Source: an uncultured virus (IMG/VR IMGVR_UViG_3300021425_000028)
Taxonomy: Duplodnaviria; Heunggongvirae; Uroviricota; Caudoviricetes
Virus record (IMG/VR): IMGVR_UViG_3300021425_000028
Length of the DNA: 20,000 nucleotides
Reading direction: 5' to 3' (one strand)
Position numbers and translations under genes: made by a program. This document shows positions 8,223 to 19,900 of this stretch, piece by piece (position 1 is the stretch's first letter; each line of letters begins with the position of its first letter). The notes below the pieces were generated by a model. It was not told the DNA's origin. It searched no databases and saw only the letters and a program-made list of their open reading frames with translations.

Positions 8223-9221
8223 ATGGGATTTGATTGGAAAAAAGCAGCTGGTACAGGAATAGATTTGTTTTCTACTGGAATTACCGCAGGAGTTATTCCA
8301 GCCGCCTCATACGCATTAACTGGACAATCATTAGGCGCTAATATTATGGGAGATTCATATGCCCCAGAATTAGGCGATCACCCGAACCAAAAAAAGAAAA
8401 GCGCAGCTTCTGATTTAGAGGCTTATATGCAAGAATTAGCTGACTCACAGCAAAGCAAAGCTGATGAGATATATGCTGAACTTGAAGCGCAAGGGCGGCC
8501 AGAGATGGATGCTCAAGTCCAAAGAAATCAGGAGATTGTAGATATTGCTAGACAAATGGCCGACACTGGAATGCCAGAGGCGCAAAGACAACAAGCGCAA
8601 CAACAAATTGAAAGAAGTGGGGCAAACGCTATGGCAGCAGCTTCAAGTAGAGGTGCTGGAATGCAAATGCTTGCTGGCATACAAGGAAATCAAAATCAAG
8701 CATTCGGAAATCTAGCCGCACAAGATGCTATGATGGCTAATCAAAATCAGCAAGGATACATGTCTGCTCTTGGTAATTTAGGGGCGGCTGAAGGAATGGC
8801 TGAGCAGTATAATCAATTGCTGCCATACGAGCAGCAATTAGCGTATGCTCAAGGTCTTGAAGGTAGTGCTATACAAAACCAGATGGGAGTATATAACCAA
8901 GCTTATATGAACTCAGCTGCAAATCAACAGCAGCTTATGGATATGGCTGGAATGGTTTTAAATGGTGGAGGAACAGTCGCGTCTATTGCCTCTGATATAA
9001 GATTAAAAGAGAATATTAGTCATACGGGGTACAGTAAAAATGGCATTCCTATTTATCAATGGAGATATAAAGGCGACAATCCAAAAACTTACTCTGGAAC
9101 AATGGCTCAAGATCTATTGGAATTAGGATATGAGGATGCTGTAGTTACTATGGAAAGTGGTTTCTTTGCTGTTGATTATTCAAAAATAGATGTAGATTTC
9201 AAAACAATTTCTAATGGCTAA
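8223..9221 (+). CDS. Putative ejection (pilot/internal virion) protein with C-terminal peptidase S74-type intramolecular chaperone domain
   Basis: Gln/Ala/Gly/Met-rich helical body without Cys. The C-terminal 76 aa from 8991 read SDIRLKENI...GIPIYQWRYK...GTMAQDL...VDYSKI, the S74/ICA signature. Confidence 0.75.
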   Translation: MGFDWKKAAGTGIDLFSTGITAGVIPAASYALTGQSLGANIMGDSYAPELGDHPNQKKKSAASDLEAYMQELADSQQSKADEIYAELEAQGRPEMDAQVQRNQEIVDIARQMADTGMPEAQRQQAQQQIERSGANAMAAASSRGAGMQMLAGIQGNQNQAFGNLAAQDAMMANQNQQGYMSALGNLGAAEGMAEQYNQLLPYEQQLAYAQGLEGSAIQNQMGVYNQAYMNSAANQQQLMDMAGMVLNGGGTVASIASDIRLKENISHTGYSKNGIPIYQWRYKGDNPKTYSGTMAQDLLELGYEDAVVTMESGFFAVDYSKIDVDFKTISNG

Positions 9222-10728
9222 AGGAGGATTCGGTGCATATAGTAGTGTTCCAAGAAGTTCGGGTATGGGGCAAGGCGCTGCTCAAGTAGTTAATCCTGTA
9301 GCTCCAATAGCTACAGACTTTACAGGATTGAATCAGGGTATTCAAAATCTTGGAGCTGGGGTTATGGACATGAAAGCTCAAGACGCGGCCAAGAAAAAAG
9401 CTGAAGCTCAAAAGCTAAAAGATGCGCAGGATCTTAATGCTGGCACAACTCCTTATTATCAGAATGCCTTTAACGCACATAAGGATAAAGTAATGCAAGG
9501 TGTTTTAAATTCAGAAGATGAAAATATCGACCTTGATAAAGTTGCAGCTGATTTAGGAAGATTTGGAAAGGATATAGAGGCGGCAGAAAAATTGGAAGTT
9601 TCTATGTTGAAACAAGCTCAGCAAGATGAAAATCAAATGGTAAGGGATGCGAATGGAAATTGGATTCCGTTTCAAGAAGTTATGTTTGATCGATTGGCTA
9701 CTGCGCCTACAGAGGAAGAATTAGCTTTAGCAGATGAGGGTTTATTTGCTCAAAATAGAATGCTTGAGTTGAATGACTTACAAAAGTCAACGCTTAAAAG
9801 AGATCCTTTATATGATCCTGAGTTTAAAATCAGCGATACATTTATGGACTACGCAAAGAATAGCGCAAGCTCAAAAGCAGTTATTCAAAAGGTAATGAAT
9901 GACAACGATGGAAACTATGACTTTAAGAAGGTAATTACCGAGCTTCCACTGGAAGAAAGGAAAAAATTTATTGATAAGGTTAAAGACTCAGACCAATTAA
10001 TGACTGAGTGGGTTACTCAAAGAGCAATCGCCACGAATCAAAAGATTCCTAACATTAATGACCCTAATGAAAGAGCGTTAATAGAAGATGCTTGGTATGA
10101 AGAGGTAGATAAGATTGATAGTCGATTACCGGCTACTAGAAAGGAGTCCGGAAGTGTTGTTAAATCAGTTGATGGACAACAGAGGGGTAATAATAAGCAG
10201 ACTGATCAATATCGAGTGATTGAACTTGAAAATGAAAACTTTGCTACGCCTAAAGATTTTGAAAATCAAGTAGAAAAAGTAGGCAGTTTAATCTCAAAAT
10301 CAAATTCAGAAGACTTTACTGAAGATGACGCAAAACTTCTAAAAGAAAGCCAGAATCTTCTAAAGAAGATGAAGTCAACATCTTGGGGATTTGATACTGA
10401 GTCAGCTAAAACAACGTCATTGGTAAATGATAAAACTCCAGACAAAGAAATTCCTGTTTCGATTGGAAATTATACTGGAGGATTAAAGAGTATAACAGTC
10501 GATAAAAACGGCAAAGGATACGCAGTCATAAACACCAAAGTTTCATATCGAAAAGGAAGTACAGCAGATGATGGAACAGCAACAAGTAGAACAATTATTC
10601 AGCCATTACCAGTAGAAATTTCGCCTAATGATGTAAAAATGATTGAGGAAAGGTATAATGTCAAAGTAATGCCTGATGGTAGTGTAGAAGAAACAACAAC
10701 AGAAGATTTTAACTGGGGGGATCAATAA
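9214..10728 (+). CDS. Putative ejection/internal virion protein (504 aa)
   Basis: Overlaps the previous gene, has a Gly/Ala-rich N-terminus and a charged helical body, lacks Cys, and occupies the second-ejection-gene position. Confidence 0.55.
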   Translation: MAKGGFGAYSSVPRSSGMGQGAAQVVNPVAPIATDFTGLNQGIQNLGAGVMDMKAQDAAKKKAEAQKLKDAQDLNAGTTPYYQNAFNAHKDKVMQGVLNSEDENIDLDKVAADLGRFGKDIEAAEKLEVSMLKQAQQDENQMVRDANGNWIPFQEVMFDRLATAPTEEELALADEGLFAQNRMLELNDLQKSTLKRDPLYDPEFKISDTFMDYAKNSASSKAVIQKVMNDNDGNYDFKKVITELPLEERKKFIDKVKDSDQLMTEWVTQRAIATNQKIPNINDPNERALIEDAWYEEVDKIDSRLPATRKESGSVVKSVDGQQRGNNKQTDQYRVIELENENFATPKDFENQVEKVGSLISKSNSEDFTEDDAKLLKESQNLLKKMKSTSWGFDTESAKTTSLVNDKTPDKEIPVSIGNYTGGLKSITVDKNGKGYAVINTKVSYRKGSTADDGTATSRTIIQPLPVEISPNDVKMIEERYNVKVMPDGSVEETTTEDFNWGDQ

Positions 10729-10729
10729 G

Positions 10730-13700
10730 ATGAATCAAGACCAAGACAATAAAGCGCTAGATAACCTTTACAAGGATGCCCAGTCAAAAGGCTATAAAAA
10801 GGATGTCTCTGAATTTAAGACTCTTTTAGAGTCTGATGAAAGGGCTTTAGAAGCAGCGTATAAGCTGGCTACTGACAAAGGCTATAAGAAAGATGTTGCC
10901 GAGTTTGAAACCCTTCTAGGGTTAAAAAAAAAAGAATCCGCGCAGTCAGAAGCATCTACAACTCAACAATCAAAAAATCCACAGCAAGCTGGTCAATCAT
11001 CTCAAATGGATGGTCAGCAATCTACGCCATATGGTGTCCAACAACCAAGTCCTCTCGTTGATAAAACGCTTCCAGTTGGTGTGGCTGCTCCTAAAGAAGG
11101 GGGTGAAGTAACTACAGAGTTTCAAGAAAGTATGCGCCCCACAGAAGGTGCTGTAATTGGAGCTAATATTGGAATTGATAAAGCAAAGGATAAGAAATCT
11201 GCAGAGAGTGCGGTAGCTGGTTTTAATGTTGGCATTGAAAAGGCTAATGAAAAGCAGCCTGAAAATACTATGGCCGTATACTCTGATTACAAAAAATTAG
11301 AGCCTCAAATTGAGGAGCTTAATAAGCGTATTGATCAATTCGAATCTTTGGATACTCCAAATAGAAAGGTGATTGATGAGCTTACTATTCAGAGAAACGA
11401 GCTTGCCGATGCTCAAGCAAAAAATGTAGAGAAGCTTATTAATCCAGTAATTGAAAAAACTAAGGATACGTTTTGGACTAAAGATGGAGAGGTAAAGCCA
11501 GAATTTATTGATAAGAATTTTTATGGATTCAATGTTCCGAATCTTGATGCTATTAGAAGCGAAGCTGATAAGCTATTCAATGAAGATGCTCAAGGATTAA
11601 AGAGAAAGTTCATCAAAGACATGCAGGGGTCTATCCAATTTGGATTAGACGTTGAGAAAAACAACCTTGAAGATAGATTTGAAAAAATTCTAAAAGAAAA
11701 TACTGGGAAATCATTACAAGATTTAATCTCAGAAAACAGCCAAAAGCAATTCGATGAAACGTATGGCAAGGATCTAGCCGCCACACTTTCAACTGTTCAA
11801 GGTAAAATTGGGGCTTTAGAATCTGAATACACTGAAATACTTAAGGCTGAGCAAGAAAAAGATCAAGCCATTATAGATCAAATGAGCGCAGCGTATAAGG
11901 AGAAAGCCGAAATATTGACAAGCGCTCCTATTACTACTGTTGAGCAAGAAACTGCTGTAAATCTTGAGTTATCCAAATTATTTGATGATTACAACAAGTC
12001 AATAGACGAAATAATCGAAACATCTGCTGATAGGCAAAATGAATACAATAGTAGGCTGAACAGGGTTGCTCAAGAACAAACGGATCTTTACAATAAAAAA
12101 GCAGCAGAGCTTTCTGCTAAATTTGAGAGGGAATATAATTTATCTCCAGATGTTGTTGCTGAAATGAATAAAGCATCTAAAGCAGCGGCAGAGCAGTTAC
12201 TTCAAGAGGCAAACAAAGCAAAGGAAAAAGTCATATCCTCTATGGATCAGACAAACCAATGGTCAAACAGATTGATGACTAGCACCATGTCTTCTATTGG
12301 AGGTTTAATGGCTGGATGGGCTGTGTCTGGAGGTGGAGATGGTGCGTTTGGTGATAAGGTGGAGCAGTATTGGCAACCATCTGTATCACCGGTTAAGTCA
12401 TTTAAAGACATGACTTTATACTCATTTGAGGAAAGCTCTGGAAACCTTTTAGGTTCTATGATGCCATCAGTAGCTGCTAGTCTTGGTACAGCGGCTTTAA
12501 CAAAGAACGCTAGTATGACAACTAGGATTCTTGCCACTGGTGCAGCTGGATGGGCAACTGAAACTATAGATATAGCTGGAAGACAATACAAAGAAGCACT
12601 TGAGCGAACTGGATCAGAGGCAGAGGCTAAAAATGCAGCTTCAGAGGCTATTGATGCTCAGATTGCAATGTCTTATATGTATTTAGCAGATGGGCTTCCA
12701 TTTATCGGTGCGTATAAGAAAATTGCAAATCCGGTTCTCAGAATTGGGACTGGAGCAACAGTTGAATATGTTACTGAAGGTATTCAAGAATACGGACAAG
12801 GATTAGCAGAGAAGTCAATTTCTGGGTCTAGAGACTATGAAAACTGGTGGTCTGGATATAGAAATAAAGATGGTTGGATGGAAGGTGGAGCTTCTATGGA
12901 GGCGTTTGAAGAGAATATGGTAAATGTGTTGCCAGCTTCATTGACTGGAGTAATAGGGTCTGTAAACGCACAGAGCAAGTCTATTCTCGATACTAATCCA
13001 GACATTGCTATGCAACAACTTGGTGATATGATCATTAAGAAAGGTAAGCCAATGGCAAAACACCAAATCTCATTGATTTATAGCCAGGGGCTAATGGATA
13101 AGCAAACATTCAATTATTTAGGCCAGCAAATTGATAATTATGAGACAGCAAACTCTAAGGAGTACAATGCTATCATGTTTAAAAAGGATCAAGTCAATAA
13201 AGAGGCTGAAAAAGAGGAAGATCCAGTAAAGAAAAAGGTTCTAAATAAAGTAGCTCAGTCATATGATGTTTTAATGGAAGACCTATTAATGGGACGACCT
13301 ATTAACATGAATACTGTAGATGTTGCTGGAAAGGAGTATCTTGAAGTAACTAACAATCCTATCAAGCAAGTAGAGATGAATAAGCTTAAGGATGTAAAAA
13401 TTACCGCTCCGGAAGAAGCTAAAAAGTCTAAAACTACAGTCGAGCAATACGGGGATGAGCAAGAGGTTAAATCAAAACAAGCACCAGAAGAAAAAGGAGT
13501 ATCGGTATCAGATGCTATTACAGGAATCGTTGTGCCGGCTAGTGTAAAAGGAAGGCTTTTGAATGAAGATCAGTCAAAAGAACTACAGAAAGAAATTGAG
13601 TCGAAACAAGTCACTAATTCAACAGAAGTTTTTGATAAGGCCAAAGACGATATTCGTATGAAAGCCTTCAGCTATGATGAGCCGATAGCTAAAAAAGAAG

Positions 13701-14203
13701 TGAACGGAGTAGATGTGCGTATTACTGAAGGGTTAATACGCAATAACGAAAAATCTTATCTTCTTTATGCTGACGGTAAAATAGTTGGAGAATTTGAAAC
13801 TGTAGATGGAGCTAAAAAAGTAGTAGGATTAATTGAAGAGAATCTAGTTCCTTCATTAGAAAGCAATACACTATCTCCTTTCATAGAGAAGTTTAATTTA
13901 ACGGAATCAGAGTCAGCAGAAGGTGTGTTGGTTAATGACCCTAACAGCGATATTCAATTAGCGTTTTCTGAGTCAACAACGCCTAACACAATTAAACTAG
14001 AAAGTATTAGGTCAACAAAGGCAAAACAGGAGTTTGAAGCTCAAGAAGACAATGCATTTAAAGCTAGAAAATGGCCAGTAAAATTAACTTTGATTTCCCC
14101 AAAACAATTAGCAAATTCAAAAAATCCTATTGAAAACAAGTTAAAGCATGATGATATTAAGGATAGGTACAAAAAATTAAAAGCATTTATTAATTGTTTG
14201 TGA
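10730..14203 (+). CDS. Large ejection/cargo (polyvalent-type) protein, N-terminal half; last ~60 aa supplied by the inserted cassette
   Basis: 1157 aa. It has an N-terminal 30-aa duplication, a coiled-coil region and Gly/Ala-rich hydrophobic helices (~aa 520-750). It ends with a partial GNAT-like segment (IQLAFSE...TIKLESIRSTK) followed by an unrelated tail ending INCL. Confidence 0.7.
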   Translation: MNQDQDNKALDNLYKDAQSKGYKKDVSEFKTLLESDERALEAAYKLATDKGYKKDVAEFETLLGLKKKESAQSEASTTQQSKNPQQAGQSSQMDGQQSTPYGVQQPSPLVDKTLPVGVAAPKEGGEVTTEFQESMRPTEGAVIGANIGIDKAKDKKSAESAVAGFNVGIEKANEKQPENTMAVYSDYKKLEPQIEELNKRIDQFESLDTPNRKVIDELTIQRNELADAQAKNVEKLINPVIEKTKDTFWTKDGEVKPEFIDKNFYGFNVPNLDAIRSEADKLFNEDAQGLKRKFIKDMQGSIQFGLDVEKNNLEDRFEKILKENTGKSLQDLISENSQKQFDETYGKDLAATLSTVQGKIGALESEYTEILKAEQEKDQAIIDQMSAAYKEKAEILTSAPITTVEQETAVNLELSKLFDDYNKSIDEIIETSADRQNEYNSRLNRVAQEQTDLYNKKAAELSAKFEREYNLSPDVVAEMNKASKAAAEQLLQEANKAKEKVISSMDQTNQWSNRLMTSTMSSIGGLMAGWAVSGGGDGAFGDKVEQYWQPSVSPVKSFKDMTLYSFEESSGNLLGSMMPSVAASLGTAALTKNASMTTRILATGAAGWATETIDIAGRQYKEALERTGSEAEAKNAASEAIDAQIAMSYMYLADGLPFIGAYKKIANPVLRIGTGATVEYVTEGIQEYGQGLAEKSISGSRDYENWWSGYRNKDGWMEGGASMEAFEENMVNVLPASLTGVIGSVNAQSKSILDTNPDIAMQQLGDMIIKKGKPMAKHQISLIYSQGLMDKQTFNYLGQQIDNYETANSKEYNAIMFKKDQVNKEAEKEEDPVKKKVLNKVAQSYDVLMEDLLMGRPINMNTVDVAGKEYLEVTNNPIKQVEMNKLKDVKITAPEEAKKSKTTVEQYGDEQEVKSKQAPEEKGVSVSDAITGIVVPASVKGRLLNEDQSKELQKEIESKQVTNSTEVFDKAKDDIRMKAFSYDEPIAKKEVNGVDVRITEGLIRNNEKSYLLYADGKIVGEFETVDGAKKVVGLIEENLVPSLESNTLSPFIEKFNLTESESAEGVLVNDPNSDIQLAFSESTTPNTIKLESIRSTKAKQEFEAQEDNAFKARKWPVKLTLISPKQLANSKNPIENKLKHDDIKDRYKKLKAFINCL
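10745..10918 (+). repeat. Two tandem 30-aa (90-bp period) repeats at the cargo protein N-terminus
   Basis: DNKALDNLYKDAQSKGYKKDVSEFKTLL / DERALEAAYKLATDKGYKKDVAEFETLL. Confidence 0.9.
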
Positions 14204-14607
14204 TGGAAAAAGATAGAGATGATGAAATATTTGAAAGGGAACTTTCGCAAAAGAACCATAAGGAATTAATATCCCAGATTAAAAATCTGTCAGAGGCTAT
14301 TTTAAATAGAAAAGAAGCAGGAATTGAAGATGGCTTAAAGATCTATTTACAAAAAATAGATCATGCGTTAAACGCCCTAAATAATAAAAATGAGTCTAGT
14401 CCAAAAATTAATGTAAATTTAGAAGAAGCAGTACGCGCGATTGATAGAATCAAGGCTGAAATAGTGGATAGCAACAATGCTTTTATGCGGTACATGGAGA
14501 GCAGGTTAGTTCCTGATAAAATATCCTTTGTAAGAAATTACAGAGGGGTTGCAGATTCAGTCCAAATAACATACAAATCAATTAAAGAACTAAGAGATGG
14601 CCGATAA
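14203..14607 (+). CDS. Hypothetical protein (134 aa): coiled coil plus a short C-terminal beta-hairpin
   Basis: The ATG at 14203 overlaps the upstream TGA (TGATG) and is preferred over the TTG at 14194. The helical body ends in KISFVRNYRGVADSVQITY. Confidence 0.75.
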   Translation: MEKDRDDEIFERELSQKNHKELISQIKNLSEAILNRKEAGIEDGLKIYLQKIDHALNALNNKNESSPKINVNLEEAVRAIDRIKAEIVDSNNAFMRYMESRLVPDKISFVRNYRGVADSVQITYKSIKELRDGR

Positions 14608-15955
14608 TGTACAGTTAAATTCCCCTACAACTTCTGGAGCTGTTATTGCAACTGATGATATTGCAGGGGTTCAGCATCAACTTGTAAAGCTTGAGTTCGG
14701 AGAAGATGGTTCTGCGACTCAGGTAAGCAACTCAAACCCATTACCGTCTAAAGATTCAGAAGCCATTGCGCTACTCGAAAGTTTAGATGGTAAGATTTCA
14801 GCTCAAAGTTATACTTCTGAGATCGGGGTAAATTCAACTACAACACCACTAGCTAGTGGTGCTACATTTACAGGGGTTGGAGAGCTATCAAATCTACCCA
14901 ATGTTATGGTCATTTGTAAGACCGACAACACAGGAACTCTATTTTTTGATTTTTCACCTGATGGAACAAATTGGGACTCAACATTTCCTACAGCAGGATT
15001 TCAAGTAAAGGCGGGTATAAATGAGTTTCATACAGCAATAAAAGGAGCAAGGTATTTTAGAGTTCGTTTAGTTAATGATACAGGCGCTCAAACATATTTA
15101 AGGCTTTACACTTATTACGGGTCAAACTTTGTACCTAGTAACGCCCCATTAAATCAAATCGCTGGATTAGACCAAGACGCAATATTTACTCGTGGTACAA
15201 TTCCACAAGATGAAATAAGAATAGGTAGAAGAGAAGGTGTTACGGGCTTTACCAAGTTTGCTTATAGAGATGGTTTAACCGCTGCTTCTGGCGAGCAAAC
15301 AGTGTGGACTTCAGCGGAAAATACATTTATACCAATGGTTGTAGCGGACACTTATACAATTACTTATGATGGAACGGGTGGCGGAACAACTGATGGCGCA
15401 GGAACAACAGGAGCTTTGACGCTCGCTATAACTCATGTTAATGCAAATGGTGATCCTGAAACTTTTATACACACGCTTGGTACGGATGGTAGTGATATAA
15501 CAACACAAAGTGGTTTTGGCATCAATCGTTGTGCGGTAGCTAGTAGTGGGGGCGCTGATTACAATAATAGTGATATAACTATAGCCGCAACAATTAGTGG
15601 AAATGTCCAAGCTCATATATCAGCGAATAACAGCACAACCGAGCAAGCTATATTTGTGACTAGCGCTAATCATGATGCGGTTGCTAAGTGGTTATTTATA
15701 AAAATGAATAAATTAACTGGTGGTGGTGAGGTTCGAGCTTTAGTTAAGGGGTACATATATAATAGACAAGTTGCGACACGTTATCTAATTTTTAGAGCAA
15801 TACTTGACACAAGGGGTGAGGCTACTATTAATATAACTGACCCGATAGGATTCAACCTAAGCCCAACAGATGTAATATGGTTTACAGTTGACACAGATAC
15901 GAATAGTAGCGAGATAGACTTAAGGTTTAGCTTAAACGAGTATAGAAGAACATAA
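14597..15955 (+). CDS. Beta-rich putative virion-surface (fibre/decoration-like) protein, 452 aa
   Basis: Thr/Gly-rich. It has an N-terminal module (ADNVQLN...IATDDIAGVQHQLVKLEFGEDGSATQVSNSNPLP), a jelly-roll-like module (NSTTTPLASGATFTG...FDFSPDGTNWD...ARYFRVRLVN) and a second beta domain. The function is inferred from composition and remembered phage motifs. Confidence 0.55.
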   Translation: MADNVQLNSPTTSGAVIATDDIAGVQHQLVKLEFGEDGSATQVSNSNPLPSKDSEAIALLESLDGKISAQSYTSEIGVNSTTTPLASGATFTGVGELSNLPNVMVICKTDNTGTLFFDFSPDGTNWDSTFPTAGFQVKAGINEFHTAIKGARYFRVRLVNDTGAQTYLRLYTYYGSNFVPSNAPLNQIAGLDQDAIFTRGTIPQDEIRIGRREGVTGFTKFAYRDGLTAASGEQTVWTSAENTFIPMVVADTYTITYDGTGGGTTDGAGTTGALTLAITHVNANGDPETFIHTLGTDGSDITTQSGFGINRCAVASSGGADYNNSDITIAATISGNVQAHISANNSTTEQAIFVTSANHDAVAKWLFIKMNKLTGGGEVRALVKGYIYNRQVATRYLIFRAILDTRGEATINITDPIGFNLSPTDVIWFTVDTDTNSSEIDLRFSLNEYRRT

Positions 15956-16146
15956 TGCTACTTGCTTTAATATCAAATATTGGTACGGCAGCAGGAGTAG
16001 TAGTTCCTTTAACTGGAGCAAGTGGAGCTAGCAAGAGAATAAAAGAAGAACAAGATCGAATTGATGAAATTAGAGCTGCAAGAGAAGATGAGCAATACGT
16101 TTTACTCACAATAGCTGAAATAATGGTAAAATATTACACGAACTAA
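15955..16146 (+). CDS. Small hypothetical protein (63 aa)
   Basis: TAATG coupling upstream, and its stop lies 1 nt before the next ATG. It has a hydrophobic N-terminus, a GASGAS linker and a charged helix ending REDEQYVLLTIAEIM. Confidence 0.7.
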   Translation: MLLALISNIGTAAGVVVPLTGASGASKRIKEEQDRIDEIRAAREDEQYVLLTIAEIMVKYYTN

Positions 16147-16147
16147 G

Positions 16148-19100
16148 ATGGCAAAATGTTTAGAACTACTTAGTGGAAGAGAAGATCTTTTAGCCTTATA
16201 TAAGGATATAGACTCAAATGACAAAGAGGCAATGCTAGATATTGCGCAAAATTCATTTAAGGAACTGCATGATGAATTAGAAGAATTAAAGTCTAAAACA
16301 ATACCAGGCCATAAGAAGTCGAAATTCATTGCTCCAAAAATTGATGATGAAATTATTGCTGCTCCAAAACCTAAGAAAGGAGAGGGCAAAGCAAAAGAGG
16401 CGCTTCAACAAATAGTTGATATTGCTGATGAGAATGGAGTGGCTATAGAGTTAGATGTTGTGCCAGAAAATACAAGTACTTCTAAAGATCGTTTGGTGTC
16501 TCTTTATGAAGGTTTTGGATTTGTGATGGATAAAGATTCAGATACTAGAATGGTTAGAAAACCAAAGCAAAAAGAATCGTTTAAGCCATTAACAAAAGAG
16601 GAGATAAGGGAAGCAGAAGAAGTAAAGAAGTCGAAAAAGACATTATTTAATCGCGCATACTCTGGACAGACCGATGAGGAAATAAAAAAAGCAATAGCTA
16701 GACATGGGCTTACTAGAGAAGTGGAGAGTGAGGCCATCGCAACAGATATAGCGAATCAGATAATCGCAGAAGTTGGGCTAGAAAATGCATTCGAAGCTGT
16801 AAACAATAGGCAAATAGGTGGCGCTCCAGCTGCACTAATAGCTGGACGAATGGTAGACTTTGTTAAGTCCAAAATGGAAGGTGATATTTCTCAGCAAGAA
16901 GCCGATGAATTAATGATTGCTCAAGCCAATGTGCTAAATGTATTTGACTCCCTTGCTAAAGAAAGCGGCCGATTAATCAAGGCGTTACAATGGGTCTATG
17001 AAAAATCAGACTTCACGTTTGATTATGAATACCAAGTAGAGTTATTCAAGCGAGTAAATGGAGGTGAAATCAGCTTGGAGCAAGAAGCTCAAATCAAAAA
17101 GATTACAGACGAATTATCGGATCTTAAAAAGAAATTAGAAGAGGTTGAGGAAAAGCATAAAAAAGAACTAGAGCAGCAGATCATCGATGGAATAAAAGAT
17201 CATATTCAAAAATCGGCCAAGAAGAAAGCGCCTCAAAAACTTACGGGTAAAAAACGAGTGGCTAAAGGATTGGAAGACTTATTAAAAGCTACGGGTAGCA
17301 TAAGTATGGCTGTTGGCGAGGTTAGACCGGAAATTACCAAGGCATTAACGGACATTGGTATTGGTTTGATTGAAGAAGGGGTGGCCACAACTGAAAACGT
17401 CATTAAGAAGTTAGCTGACTACCTAAAAAAGAATAATGTCAAAAATGTTAAGCTAAACGATTACAAAGAATCGATTCAAACATCAATTGACGAGTATGCT
17501 TCTAAGGAAACAACCGGTGGGAAGATGAAAATTCCACATGCAATGATTCGTGAACTTGTTGAGGCAGGATATGATACCATGGATTCATTGGTTGCAGCAG
17601 TTAAAGATGTGGTGCTTGCTGAGTACCCAGAGGTGACAGATCGCGAGATAATGGATGCTATTTCTGGATATGGAAGAACGATCAACCAGAGTAAAGATCA
17701 ACTAGATAAAGAAATTTATCGAATGAAGCGAGTCATGAGACTTACTTCAGCTTTAGAAGATGTTCGAAAGAAGATTAGACCAAAGAAATCAGGACTACAG
17801 AGAGATAAGCTTACTTCTGAGGAGAGAGCTTTGTCAAGAGAGTTGCGTGAATTAATGAAAGATCTTCCTATTGATCAAGAAACTTTAGATAATCAGTTGA
17901 AAACTTCATTAGATCGATCAAAGTCAATACTTCAAAATCAAATTGAGGATTTACAAAATGAGATTGATGCCAAAGAAAGAACTGAAAAGAAAGCAAGAAC
18001 TGCTGTTACTGATGCTGAATTAGAGCAGCTTAAAGAGGAAAGGGATGCAATCAAGAAAATACACGATAGTATTTTTAGAACTGATCAGGTTATTCAAGAA
18101 GAGAAGTTAGGCGCTGCCATCAAAGCAGCAGAAAGAACAAATGCAGAACTAGAACGCAAGATTAGGGATAAAGACCTTGAGCGTAAGAAGACTAAAGGAG
18201 CTGTAGAAACAGTAGCATTAAAATCTCTTAGAGATCAAAAGAAAAAGCTTCAAGACACTATTAAGCAACTACGCGATGAAAACGGTATCACTGAGCAGGA
18301 AAGAATAAACCAAGCTAGAGATCGGGCTAAGAAACGAATTGCTGACATTAATCGAAAGATTAAGGAAAAAGATTTTGCTCCAGCACCAAAGAAAAAAATC
18401 ATTTCTGATGCTGAATTAGATAAGATTAGAGCTGAAATTCTTACTAGAAAGCATGAGCTTGATAAACACCGTTATTTGGCTGAATTGGCAAACCAAAACA
18501 AAGTTGAGAAAACTGGCAGGCTTTTAAGAGGTCTTTGGGATATTTCAAGGATTTTAAAAGCAACTGGGGAGGCTTCGTGGATTGGCATTCAAAACGGAAT
18601 ATATACTGTTGTTTATGGATTAAGAAAGCCAAGTGTTTTAAAAGAGGCTGGAAAGAATTTATGGGATGCGTTTGCTAGTAAATCTAAAGGGAAGCAGCTT
18701 ACAAAAATTATTCAATCAAGTCCTCAGTATCCATTAATGAAAGATTCTAAGTTATCCATAACTGAGGAGAATGCTAAATTAAGCGCTCAAGAAGAACAAT
18801 TTATAGGTACGTTATTCGATGAGGCATGGAATCTTGTTGGATTCCCATTGCGGGTTTTAGATTTTGCTCCAATTAAAGGAAAGACAATATATGAAAGTTG
18901 GAAAGATGCAAATTTTCCAGCCGCGTTAGAAAGGGCAAATATTGCATACTCCAATACTTTAAAGGTTGCTAGATTTCAAGACGCTGTTGCTATGCTAGAA
19001 AAGCAAGGTATTTCATATGCCGATGATCCAAAAGCTTATAAAAATGCAGCAGATGTAGTAAATACATTTTCAGGTAGATCGTCTCTTGGAAGACTAGATC

Positions 19101-19900
19101 CGATGGCCGACTCATTAACGTTTATGTTTTTCTCGCCTAGATTATGGGCTTCAACTTTGAAGCAAGCTAGTCCAGCAGCAATGTATTGGGTAGGATACAG
19201 TTTAAAAGATCAGAGTGGAGGTAAATTTAAGCCGTCTGTGGCTCAGAAAATGGCCATAATTGATTTTATGACATCATTCTCTTTGACGATGAGCGCAGTG
19301 CTAATGGCTGCGGCTTACTATAACAATGATGATGATGATGAGACAGGAGTAAACTTTGACCCTACTTCAACCGATTTCATGCAAATCAAAATTGGAAATA
19401 CGAGAGTTGACCCATGGGCTGGTAAGCGACCTTTAATTGTCCTTCAGGCCAGGCTTTTAACACAAGCTTCAGCGTATGCCTTTGGGAAGAAAATAGAAGC
19501 GGAAGAGTACTGGCAAACTAGACCCCCTGGAGAGTTACTTCTAAATTATGCTAGAAACAAATTAGCCCCATCAGCATCTTTAGTTGCAAATTATATGTTA
19601 TCAAGTCAAAAAGAGGAAGATGGAGAAATGATTCTCGTTGATTCATGGGGAAATCCATTAACTGGAAAAGACGCGAGTTTTTATCAGAATGTAATTCCTA
19701 TTTACGCAGAAACATTGATAGAGCTATATAAAGAGCAGCCAGTAGTAATGGCTACATTTTTAACTTCTGCAGCATTCTTTGGAATAGGTACAAATACTTA
19801 TAATAGAGAGGAAAAGAAAAAGAAGAAAGGGAAAAATACAAGTGAAGTTGATATACCTCAATTGGATATTCCGGATTTAGATATACCAGACCTTGATTAA
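16148..19900 (+). CDS. Large ejection/cargo (polyvalent-type) protein, C-terminal half; first ~76 aa supplied by the inserted cassette
   Basis: 1250 aa. Residues ~77-140 form the C-terminal part of a GNAT-like fold, followed by long coiled-coil repeats. The C-terminal domain has FDPTSTDFMQIKIGNTRVDPWAG...RNKLAP and a hydrophobic end, a pattern I recall from large phage internal virion proteins. Confidence 0.7.
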   Translation: MAKCLELLSGREDLLALYKDIDSNDKEAMLDIAQNSFKELHDELEELKSKTIPGHKKSKFIAPKIDDEIIAAPKPKKGEGKAKEALQQIVDIADENGVAIELDVVPENTSTSKDRLVSLYEGFGFVMDKDSDTRMVRKPKQKESFKPLTKEEIREAEEVKKSKKTLFNRAYSGQTDEEIKKAIARHGLTREVESEAIATDIANQIIAEVGLENAFEAVNNRQIGGAPAALIAGRMVDFVKSKMEGDISQQEADELMIAQANVLNVFDSLAKESGRLIKALQWVYEKSDFTFDYEYQVELFKRVNGGEISLEQEAQIKKITDELSDLKKKLEEVEEKHKKELEQQIIDGIKDHIQKSAKKKAPQKLTGKKRVAKGLEDLLKATGSISMAVGEVRPEITKALTDIGIGLIEEGVATTENVIKKLADYLKKNNVKNVKLNDYKESIQTSIDEYASKETTGGKMKIPHAMIRELVEAGYDTMDSLVAAVKDVVLAEYPEVTDREIMDAISGYGRTINQSKDQLDKEIYRMKRVMRLTSALEDVRKKIRPKKSGLQRDKLTSEERALSRELRELMKDLPIDQETLDNQLKTSLDRSKSILQNQIEDLQNEIDAKERTEKKARTAVTDAELEQLKEERDAIKKIHDSIFRTDQVIQEEKLGAAIKAAERTNAELERKIRDKDLERKKTKGAVETVALKSLRDQKKKLQDTIKQLRDENGITEQERINQARDRAKKRIADINRKIKEKDFAPAPKKKIISDAELDKIRAEILTRKHELDKHRYLAELANQNKVEKTGRLLRGLWDISRILKATGEASWIGIQNGIYTVVYGLRKPSVLKEAGKNLWDAFASKSKGKQLTKIIQSSPQYPLMKDSKLSITEENAKLSAQEEQFIGTLFDEAWNLVGFPLRVLDFAPIKGKTIYESWKDANFPAALERANIAYSNTLKVARFQDAVAMLEKQGISYADDPKAYKNAADVVNTFSGRSSLGRLDPMADSLTFMFFSPRLWASTLKQASPAAMYWVGYSLKDQSGGKFKPSVAQKMAIIDFMTSFSLTMSAVLMAAAYYNNDDDDETGVNFDPTSTDFMQIKIGNTRVDPWAGKRPLIVLQARLLTQASAYAFGKKIEAEEYWQTRPPGELLLNYARNKLAPSASLVANYMLSSQKEEDGEMILVDSWGNPLTGKDASFYQNVIPIYAETLIELYKEQPVVMATFLTSAAFFGIGTNTYNREEKKKKKGKNTSEVDIPQLDIPDLDIPDLD
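19850..19897 (+). repeat. C-terminal pentapeptide repeat DIPQL-DIPDL-DIPDL-D
   Basis: 15-bp period with synonymous divergence: gatatacctcaattg / gatattccggattta / gatataccagacctt. Confidence 0.85.

Follow-up and report, generated by a model that had tools for sequence, protein, structure and literature searches.

Why should two giant phage proteins almost devoid of cysteine retain one such residue each, and retain it at the ends that face each other? The question is raised by a stretch of 20,000 nucleotides from an uncultured tailed virus (IMG/VR record IMGVR_UViG_3300021425_000028; Caudoviricetes), hereafter called the window, which comes from a phage contig 68,831 bp long. The genes encoding the two proteins, called A and B, are co-directional and end a series of putative internal-protein genes located 3' of the portal and tail genes. 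To our knowledge, the arrangement, order and release of the giant internal proteins of podophages are poorly understood beyond T7, P22, N4 and, recently, A4. Sequence comparisons, and the analogy with a phage of solved structure, suggest that the two cysteines form a disulfide tethering A to B tail-to-head in the packaged ejection complex; we place the probability of this reading at about 0.7.

The cysteine pair and its recurrence in relatives

Four open reading frames (ORFs) of the window, of 332, 504, 1157 and 1250 amino acids (aa), are of the ejection type. They contain 0, 0, 1 and 1 cysteines, respectively, thus two in 3243 aa. The features carrying these residues, all defined by translation, are:

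10730..14203, + strand: protein A, 1157 aa, single cysteine at residue 1156
14195-14197, + strand: codon TGT of A Cys1156, the penultimate residue (..FINCL, then stop)
16148..19900, + strand: protein B, 1250 aa, single cysteine at residue 4
16157-16159, + strand: codon TGT of B Cys4 (MAKCLELL..)

A first inspection of the letters by a model, made with no database searches (the sequence-only reading), had counted just two cysteines in the four ORFs and assigned them to these codons, and translation confirms the count. Five other ORFs of the window hold 17 cysteines in 2937 aa, with 2-5 residues each (4 in an ORF of 208 aa), so that cysteine depletion is confined to the four ejection-type ORFs. 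Were two cysteines placed at random in 3243 residues, the probability that the last 3 residues of A receive one, and the first 10 residues of B the other, would be ~6e-6, a figure (2 x (3/3243) x (10/3243)) which is post hoc. The real test is recurrence in relatives.

Relatives were found through the C-terminal domain of B, of ~500 aa, at 23-43% identity. They include 3 viral contigs, 4 metagenome contigs, and 80 of the 318 viral-contig matches obtained by an alignment search. Among the first seven loci, L001-L003 and L005-L007 encode a B protein with a single cysteine at residue 5 or 9, and the giant ORF upstream has in turn a single cysteine, as last or penultimate residue; in L004 the end of the contig removes both the start of B and the upstream region. 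A pair was scored when B carried a cysteine in its first 10 residues, and an ORF of at least 300 aa, located upstream at no more than 5 kb, carried one in its last 3. The set comprises 85 B rows, 8 of which are N-truncated and 5 have no upstream ORF of at least 300 aa, leaving 72 informative loci. Both cysteines are present in 15 loci, neither is present in 57, and no locus is discordant. The sequence-only reading had envisaged the co-conservation of terminal cysteine pairs in adjacent ejection genes, and these counts bear it out.

Additional pairs reside outside the 72 loci, in L007, L090, L097 and L098. When each contig is counted once and the window is included, the contigs bearing the pair are 18, as some rows derive from one contig (L001=L027, L013=L095, L014=L096, L041=L091). 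The end of the contig cuts A in L003, L005, L006, L010 and L028, where only its C-terminal part is visible; B has an N-terminal cysteine also in L015 and L045, two contigs lacking upstream sequence.

The positions of the cysteines are constant, at the C-terminus of the upstream gene product and at residue 4-9 of the downstream one. A C-terminal cysteine, in the last 3 residues, is found in 15 of the 327 complete ORFs of at least 300 aa present in these loci, corresponding to 10 A proteins (no more than 2 cysteines each) and 5 cysteine-rich proteins (7-24 cysteines). Similarly, the 25 of 327 ORFs with a cysteine in the first 10 residues are 17 B proteins, the middle protein of L009 and 7 cysteine-rich proteins. 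All ORFs with at most 2 cysteines and one of them at the C-terminus are therefore A proteins (10 of 10), and those with one at the N-terminus are B (17) or the L009 middle protein (1). In L009 the equivalent of A occurs in two pieces, with a 63-aa ORF containing two cysteines between them (L009:557-8279).

A tree of 70 distinct B C-terminal domains was built by a quick LG+G4 search, with some long branches flagged. On this tree the N-terminal cysteine undergoes 7 changes, at least 5 of which are forced by well-supported branches, and none of 500 label shuffles gave a number as low. All 5 independent pairs found on supported branches show the partner cysteine changing likewise, as do all 7 when every branch is considered. 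The cysteine pattern is far beyond chance.

Cysteine is rare throughout the B family, which is defined by the following domain:

18338..19897, + strand: conserved C-terminal domain of B, 520 aa (alignment)

The family is almost cysteine-free and includes 13,298 representative clusters (E<=0.001); among the records found, none of its members belongs to a cultured phage. In the fetched loci B proteins contain 27 cysteines in 112,596 residues. The best 150 representatives of the family contain 5 in 165,830 residues, and 146 of the 150 have none; one of them, P0077, begins MGPC. Ten B homologues were found by word search, and 7 of the 10 lack cysteine. P0006 carries Cys4; P0003 carries Cys6 and Cys195, and is annotated with a cytosine-methylase domain (PF00145), of which Cys195 would be the putative catalytic residue.

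The facing ends of A and B

The ends bearing the two cysteines are delimited in the window as follows:

14021..14200, + strand: tail of A, last ~60 aa, a conserved island ending ..YKKLKAFINCL (BLAST, alignments)
16148..16375, + strand: head of B, first ~76 aa, MAKCLEL.., aligning with its counterparts in L041 and L028 (alignment)

Only the last ~57-62 aa of A are aligned by BLAST to the A proteins of L041 (45% identity) and L090 (42%). Four pairs of relatives were compared. Over the last 40 aa of A their identity is 82, 85, 48 and 55%, the whole protein giving 44, 29, 25 and 24%; over the first 40 aa of B it is 72, 85, 38 and 35%, with 40, 84, 36 and 24% for the whole of B. No other parts of A and B are as well conserved as the facing ends, and the tags that the sequence-only reading had delimited are thus real conserved islands. 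Tails and heads are combined in five types:

A ends ..KDC or ..KDCG, B starts MAKPCRY, one ferritin-like gene between: L001-L003, L005, L006
A ends ..KKDCP, B starts MAKKSLIPC, one ferritin-like gene between: L007
A ends ..DGCP or ..ENCP, B starts MA[KN]PCK, one ferritin-like gene between: L009, L010, L013, L014, L097, L098
A ends ..I[NDK]CL, B starts M..(P)C[LI]E, three to six genes between: window, L041, L028, L090
A ends ..SI[TQ]C, B starts M...CL, no gene between: L061, L083

In the tags homologous to those of the window (L041, L028 and L090) both cysteines are conserved, the other tag types occurring elsewhere; the sequence-only reading had staked its interpretation on such conservation. 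The opposite charge bias that it had noted is true of the window, where the net charge is +6 for the A tail and -6 for the B head, but is not a property of the pairs at large, as the corresponding values are -1/-2 in L013, +10/+3 in L061 and +6/+10 in A-4L.

A proposed disulfide tether and its weak points

The comparisons establish directly that the cysteine pattern exists and is co-conserved, and that the A tail and the B head are conserved islands; a precedent has been solved in a different phage, A4. We infer the presence of A and B in the virion, their contact, and the disulfide nature and purpose of the link. In the mechanism proposed, A and B would be virion-internal proteins, of ejection or cargo type, which are packaged jointly and held tail-to-head. 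A would dock on B through its conserved C-terminal tail, and the C-terminal cysteine of A and Cys4 of B would form a disulfide as soon as the surroundings of the particle become oxidising. With a C-terminus linked in this way to an N-terminus, the result would be an unbranched thread of ~2400 residues, able to pass through the tail channel as one chain. The avoidance of all other cysteines would make wrong cross-links impossible, and the link may set both a 1:1 stoichiometry and the order of the two proteins in the pre-ejectosome. In the cytoplasm of the host the disulfide could be reduced again. A conserved docking and linking module made of the paired cysteines and their ends, as imagined by the sequence-only reading, is supported by the recurrence of the tags and by the structural description of A4 (PMC12002296).

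Several points weigh against this scenario. No sequence similarity was detected between A or B of the window and gp27 or gp26 of A4, and a search of solved structures with two models of B, one of which has a predicted local distance difference test score (pLDDT) of 58, did not match the gp26 chain, 9k3a_A, present in the library. As neither sequence nor fold similarity was found, A4 is a precedent by analogy of mechanism and layout, not by established homology. The virion location of A and B is deduced from gene order, size, composition and weak PHROG matches of their neighbours. Amphipathic helices, which the sequence-only reading had assigned to both ends, are a weak feature: the hydrophobic moment of an 18-mer of the A tail (0.40) is at shuffle level, being matched by 34% of shuffles, and that of the B head (0.53) is reached by 4%. 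The B head was modelled as one long helix, with low confidence (pLDDT 41-68). Applied to the independent pairs, a sign test gives p = 0.0625, and could not go lower with just 5 well-supported pairs. Finally, L009 is an exception to the rule. Its middle giant protein (1183 aa) carries Cys5 (MAKGC) and Cys1182, and the 1159-aa protein which precedes it has its only cysteine at residue 844.

Ferritin-like genes and a possible metal bridge

The ferritin-like gene lies exactly between the two giants in three lineages (L001:6817-7284, L007:694-1188, L009:7788-8279, L013:7854-8345, L097:15790-16296, L098:16121-16612). Where scanned, the encoded proteins match PF00210 with E values of 5e-14 to 3.5e-19; the calls in L097 and L098 come from position and similar ends alone. 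This location lends itself to a different use of the two thiols, namely the joint binding of a metal ion or cluster (Zn, Fe, Cu), perhaps across A-B pairs arranged in a ring, and the co-occurrence counts would fit any joint use of two thiols. Yet, each chain would contribute a single cysteine, the ferritin-like gene is absent from the clade of the window and from L061, L083 and A-4L, and in the sole solved case the two residues form a disulfide (PMC12002296). We thus regard a metal bridge as improbable.

The genes between A and B and the origin of the pair

In the window A and B are separated by three genes, identified by translation:

14203..14607, + strand: 134-aa protein, no cysteine, start overlapping the stop of A (TGATG)
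14597..15955, + strand: 452-aa protein, 2 cysteines, a variable member of the A-B block
15955..16146, + strand: 63-aa protein, no cysteine, directly 5' of B

Members of the 134-aa family directly follow A in L041, L028 and L090 (E 4e-15, 8e-14 and 4e-21, respectively). A relationship of the 134-aa protein to the ferritin-like set was considered and discarded, the hhalign probability being 0.3%. The N-terminal 62 aa of the 452-aa ORF are 57% identical to a 255-aa ORF of L041 (L041:5197-5964), the remainder being unrelated. The 452-aa protein has no Pfam or PHROG match. Proteins resembling it are viral and hypothetical, XepA, DUF6385 and Adeno_shaft being weak leads, and it is probably a virion protein of the fibre or receptor-binding type. 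Small ORFs of 74 (L041), 88 (L090) and 117 aa (L028) occupy the position of the 63-aa gene, with a likeness perceived by eye for which BLAST gave no match. The number of genes in the A-B block is different in every relative, ranging from 3 to 6, as in an exchangeable fibre or receptor-binding module. With a GC content of 0.32-0.41, the block does not stand out clearly as foreign. No terminator-like site was found between A and B on the + strand, and promoter-like sites in the same interval were not above shuffles.

The sequence-only reading had attributed to these genes an active role. A mobile cassette made of the 134-, 452- and 63-aa genes would have split one gene, and brought along two-part docking tags which re-link the halves. 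The A tail, the 134-aa family, the small ORF preceding B and the B head do travel together in the window, L041, L028 and L090, and the middle genes of the block are variable. The B C-terminal domains of the same four loci fall in different well-supported clades, as expected of a mosaic block. As an example, the tags of the window group with those of L041, L028 and L090, and the C-terminal domain of its B protein falls with the L009/L013 clade and the cysteine-free L011 and L016; the two different groupings point to the exchange of the junction block between lineages. An imperfect direct repeat of 24 nucleotides (21 of 24 identical), found at 14197-14220, across the A stop and the start of the 134-aa gene, and at 16520-16543, within B codons ~125-132, flanks an interval made of the three small genes and B codons 1-124, and counts in favour of the cassette. 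Yet, the two copies are read in different frames, and their collapse gives therefore neither a clean excision product nor an in-frame fusion. Pfam and PHROG scans of the block found no integrase, transposase or homing-endonuclease domain. Above all, the same pair occurs with no intervening gene in L061, L083, A-4L, Pf-WMP3, Pf-WMP4 and TR020, and with the ferritin-like gene only in other loci. Because the intervening genes differ so widely (none, one ferritin-like, three to six), the cassette is not the creator of the pair, and because the pair exists without any gene in between, the idea is unneeded. As an explanation of the two cysteines, we consider a cassette as improbable as a metal bridge.

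Whether A and B derive from one protein is a separate matter. Cysteine-free relatives typically have a small and a medium ORF, both lacking cysteine, and one giant B, to which pair loci add the giant A. The N-terminal motif of A, present in two copies, is carried by unsplit giants, a finding which would also suit the cassette: a hidden Markov model (HMM) of the doubled motif, built on L013, the window and L041 as seeds, matches cysteine-free single giants ending in the B domain. Beyond the seeds, its N-terminal matches are L066 (2811 aa, E 7e-7) and P0010 (2074 aa, E 0.0066), and BLAST aligns residues 6-87 of L013 A to residues 13-96 of L066 (E 1e-5). Similarly, a domain of L009 A (202-402) is found inside a cysteine-free giant of 2542 aa in L020 (813-1000; E 3e-30). 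By these comparisons, A and B together probably correspond to the single giant of cysteine-free relatives. As to the window itself, residues 351-791 of its A protein, the core, have a homologue in the A protein of L013/L014, of 2576 aa (E 7e-38), and this core occurs only in separate A genes, those of L013, L014, L097 and L098; no fused homologue of this core was found by an iterated HMM in the fetched loci or by an alignment scan of viral contigs, searches of limited reach.

In the end, the sequence-only reading was probably right in its core, that is paired ends, helix plus disulfide, and one thread. It was right in part on the split, since a motif or domain of A sits in the cysteine-free single giants of L066, P0010 and L020 but no fused form of the window A emerged, and probably wrong on the role of the cassette, as neither the making of the split nor the donation of the tags found support.

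Separate roles and chance as alternative accounts

The two cysteines might also serve separately, in A-A and B-B homodimers or in anchoring to portal or capsid, and co-occur through a shared lifestyle. The exception described above, the L009 middle protein, whose N-terminal cysteine has no terminal-cysteine partner upstream, would be at home in such a scheme, and so would the N-terminal cysteines of P0003, P0006 and P0077, three proteins known without their gene neighbourhood. Separate roles are hard to reconcile with 0 discordant loci out of 72, with the joint change of both cysteines in all independent pairs, and with their invariant placement, at the C-terminus upstream and at residue 4-9 downstream; moreover, the solved case is a hetero-pair (PMC12002296). 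We judge this possibility slightly less credible than the two above. Chance placement of two rare residues deserves hardly any credit: though the first observation was post hoc, 18 contigs and four cultured cyanophages share the arrangement.

The gene series of the window and the proteins A and B

The start of the window cuts the portal gene (phrog_6547, E 2e-35; 740-aa fragment, 5 cysteines), which is followed by genes for virion proteins of 248 aa (phrog_13977, 2 cysteines) and 1289 aa (phrog_14478, 4 cysteines). An ORF of 166 aa on the - strand (2213-2713) occupies the gap between the portal gene and the next gene on the + strand. A tightly packed series on the + strand then encodes, in order, the 332-aa and 504-aa proteins, A, the 134-, 452- and 63-aa proteins, and B. 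The first two members, defined by translation, are:

8223..9221, + strand: 332-aa ejection-type protein, no cysteine, first of the small-medium-giant-giant series
9214..10728, + strand: 504-aa protein, no cysteine, second of the series

The 332-aa ORF matches phrog_6121, a virion structural protein family (E 8e-14), and phrog_4287, annotated as 'DNA ejection protein' (E 4e-7), and carries a Peptidase_S74 chaperone domain (E 9e-6). The 504-aa protein has no Pfam or PHROG family match; in relatives a cysteine-free ORF of ~400-640 aa is found in its place.

The cultured portals nearest to that of the window, at ~21% identity, belong to Cellulophaga and Maribacter podophages (Pervagoviridae), and no close relative at the DNA level was found in the phage collection. 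Cellulophaga phage phi38:1, which has the nearest cultured portal, was tried as a model of the pair and set aside: its gp099-gp101 have no cysteine, and the B-domain HMM misses gp101.

The doubled motif of ~30 aa at the N-terminus of A (10751-10945) reads ..GYKKDV.EF..LL.. twice, and is followed by KKK. Between residues 150-241 of A (11177-11452) and the long helix of HA2, from influenza haemagglutinin, there is a weak likeness (Pfam, E 0.004; PDB chains, E 8e-4 or ~1e-3), probably due to coiled-coil composition. No close relatives of A of near or longer length were found by word search, a first scan of viral contigs with A gave no match, and sequence searches of the window proteins against solved structures gave no relevant one.

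The AlphaFold model of the B C-terminal domain (pLDDT 84, predicted template modelling score 0.84) is mostly helical, with a small beta part. Foldseek found no match to it among solved structures at E<=0.001, and the best VIA-align hit (Z 5.4) covers a helical piece of 57 residues. The model of B residues 1-730 (pLDDT 58) matched only designed helical proteins, at a template modelling score of ~0.1. B ends with a short acidic repeat (19850-19897; ..DIPQLDIPDLDIPDLD). Several very cysteine-rich ORFs lie directly 3' of B in L001 (L001:12033-15848), L002 (L002:12305-14568) and L003 (L003:6574-9113), in sharp contrast to B. They include one of 249 aa with 15 cysteines and others of 310-409 aa with 15-22, and have ends such as MACNCN.. 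and ..NENCNC.

Comparison with known systems

Cysteine suppression has precedents among ejection proteins. In Schitoviridae (N4 gp50-52, DEV gp71-73) it has been attributed to passage through the periplasm (PMC11445570), and the window giants share the strong suppression. The two differ in that the rare cysteines of Schitoviridae were deemed likely annotation errors, the text on these proteins describing no terminal pair (PMC11445570), whereas the window has one. The periplasm account thus explains the depletion, not the two residues that remain in A and B.

Split inteins offer a parallel, in that two pieces encoded apart become one again after translation by way of terminal cysteines. The sequence-only reading had spoken of an analogue devoid of Hint chemistry, and the comparison is indeed an analogy only. 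In A, its tail, the B head and the ORFs in between, no Pfam family reached its cut-off, those for Hint or intein domains included; a disulfide differs from a peptide bond and can be reversed; and the cysteines are on the wrong sides for intein chemistry.

The closest parallel is cyanopodophage A4. According to the cryo-electron microscopy report, gp27 is docked into gp26 by its C-terminal helix, which a disulfide between Cys1715 and Cys5 holds in place (PMC12002296, PNAS 2025), and five copies each of gp27 and gp26 build the outer layer of the pre-ejectosome (PMC12002296). The gene data agree. In the A-4L genome (KF356198), gp27 (1717 aa) has Cys1715 only and gp26 (1114 aa) has Cys5 only; the order is gp29 (no cysteine), gp28, gp27 and gp26, and the gp27 and gp26 genes abut. 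Three further Saffermanviridae, in which the proteins are ~25% identical, retain the A-4L pair:

Pf-WMP3: A of 1495 aa, Cys1494, ..TNCL before the stop; B with Cys5, MPLNC
Pf-WMP4: A of 1459 aa, Cys1457, ..SPCGL before the stop; B with Cys5, MNISC
TR020: A of 1506 aa, Cys1505, ..NPCL before the stop; B with Cys5 and two internal cysteines, MTLNC

In A4 as in the window, two co-directional giants come last in a small-medium-giant-giant ejection series, the only cysteine of the upstream protein is at most 3 residues from its C-terminus, and the only one of the downstream protein is at residue 4-5. In both the pair follows the lineage, being retained or lost jointly in the relatives of the window, and retained in those of A-4L. 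Two differences are evident. The genes abut in A4 but are separated by three genes (1.9 kb) in the window, and the disulfide, observed by cryo-electron microscopy in A4, is a prediction in the window.

A link of this type was thus already known in one solved phage, where the gp27-gp26 disulfide is given as a structural detail (PMC12002296). What is new is its likely counterpart in an unrelated and very common family, the partners of which are separable by several genes. No paper stating a general rule on terminal cysteines was found among Creative Commons PMC papers and bioRxiv. The window family adds the strict co-evolution of the two cysteines, and pairing despite intervening genes. A single structural observation thereby becomes a sequence-readable rule, predicting which internal proteins are physically linked and how they follow one another. 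A bolder generalization, tentative and rather doubtful at present, is that pairs of terminal cysteines mark the split sites of phage ejection machinery in general, with one cysteine at each new end: pieces encoded up to six unrelated genes apart would be re-joined after assembly into an unbranched, threadable chain, and cut apart by the reducing cytoplasm of the host. If so, the sequence would tell how the packed ejection complex is ordered and connected across unrelated families, such as Saffermanviridae and the B family.

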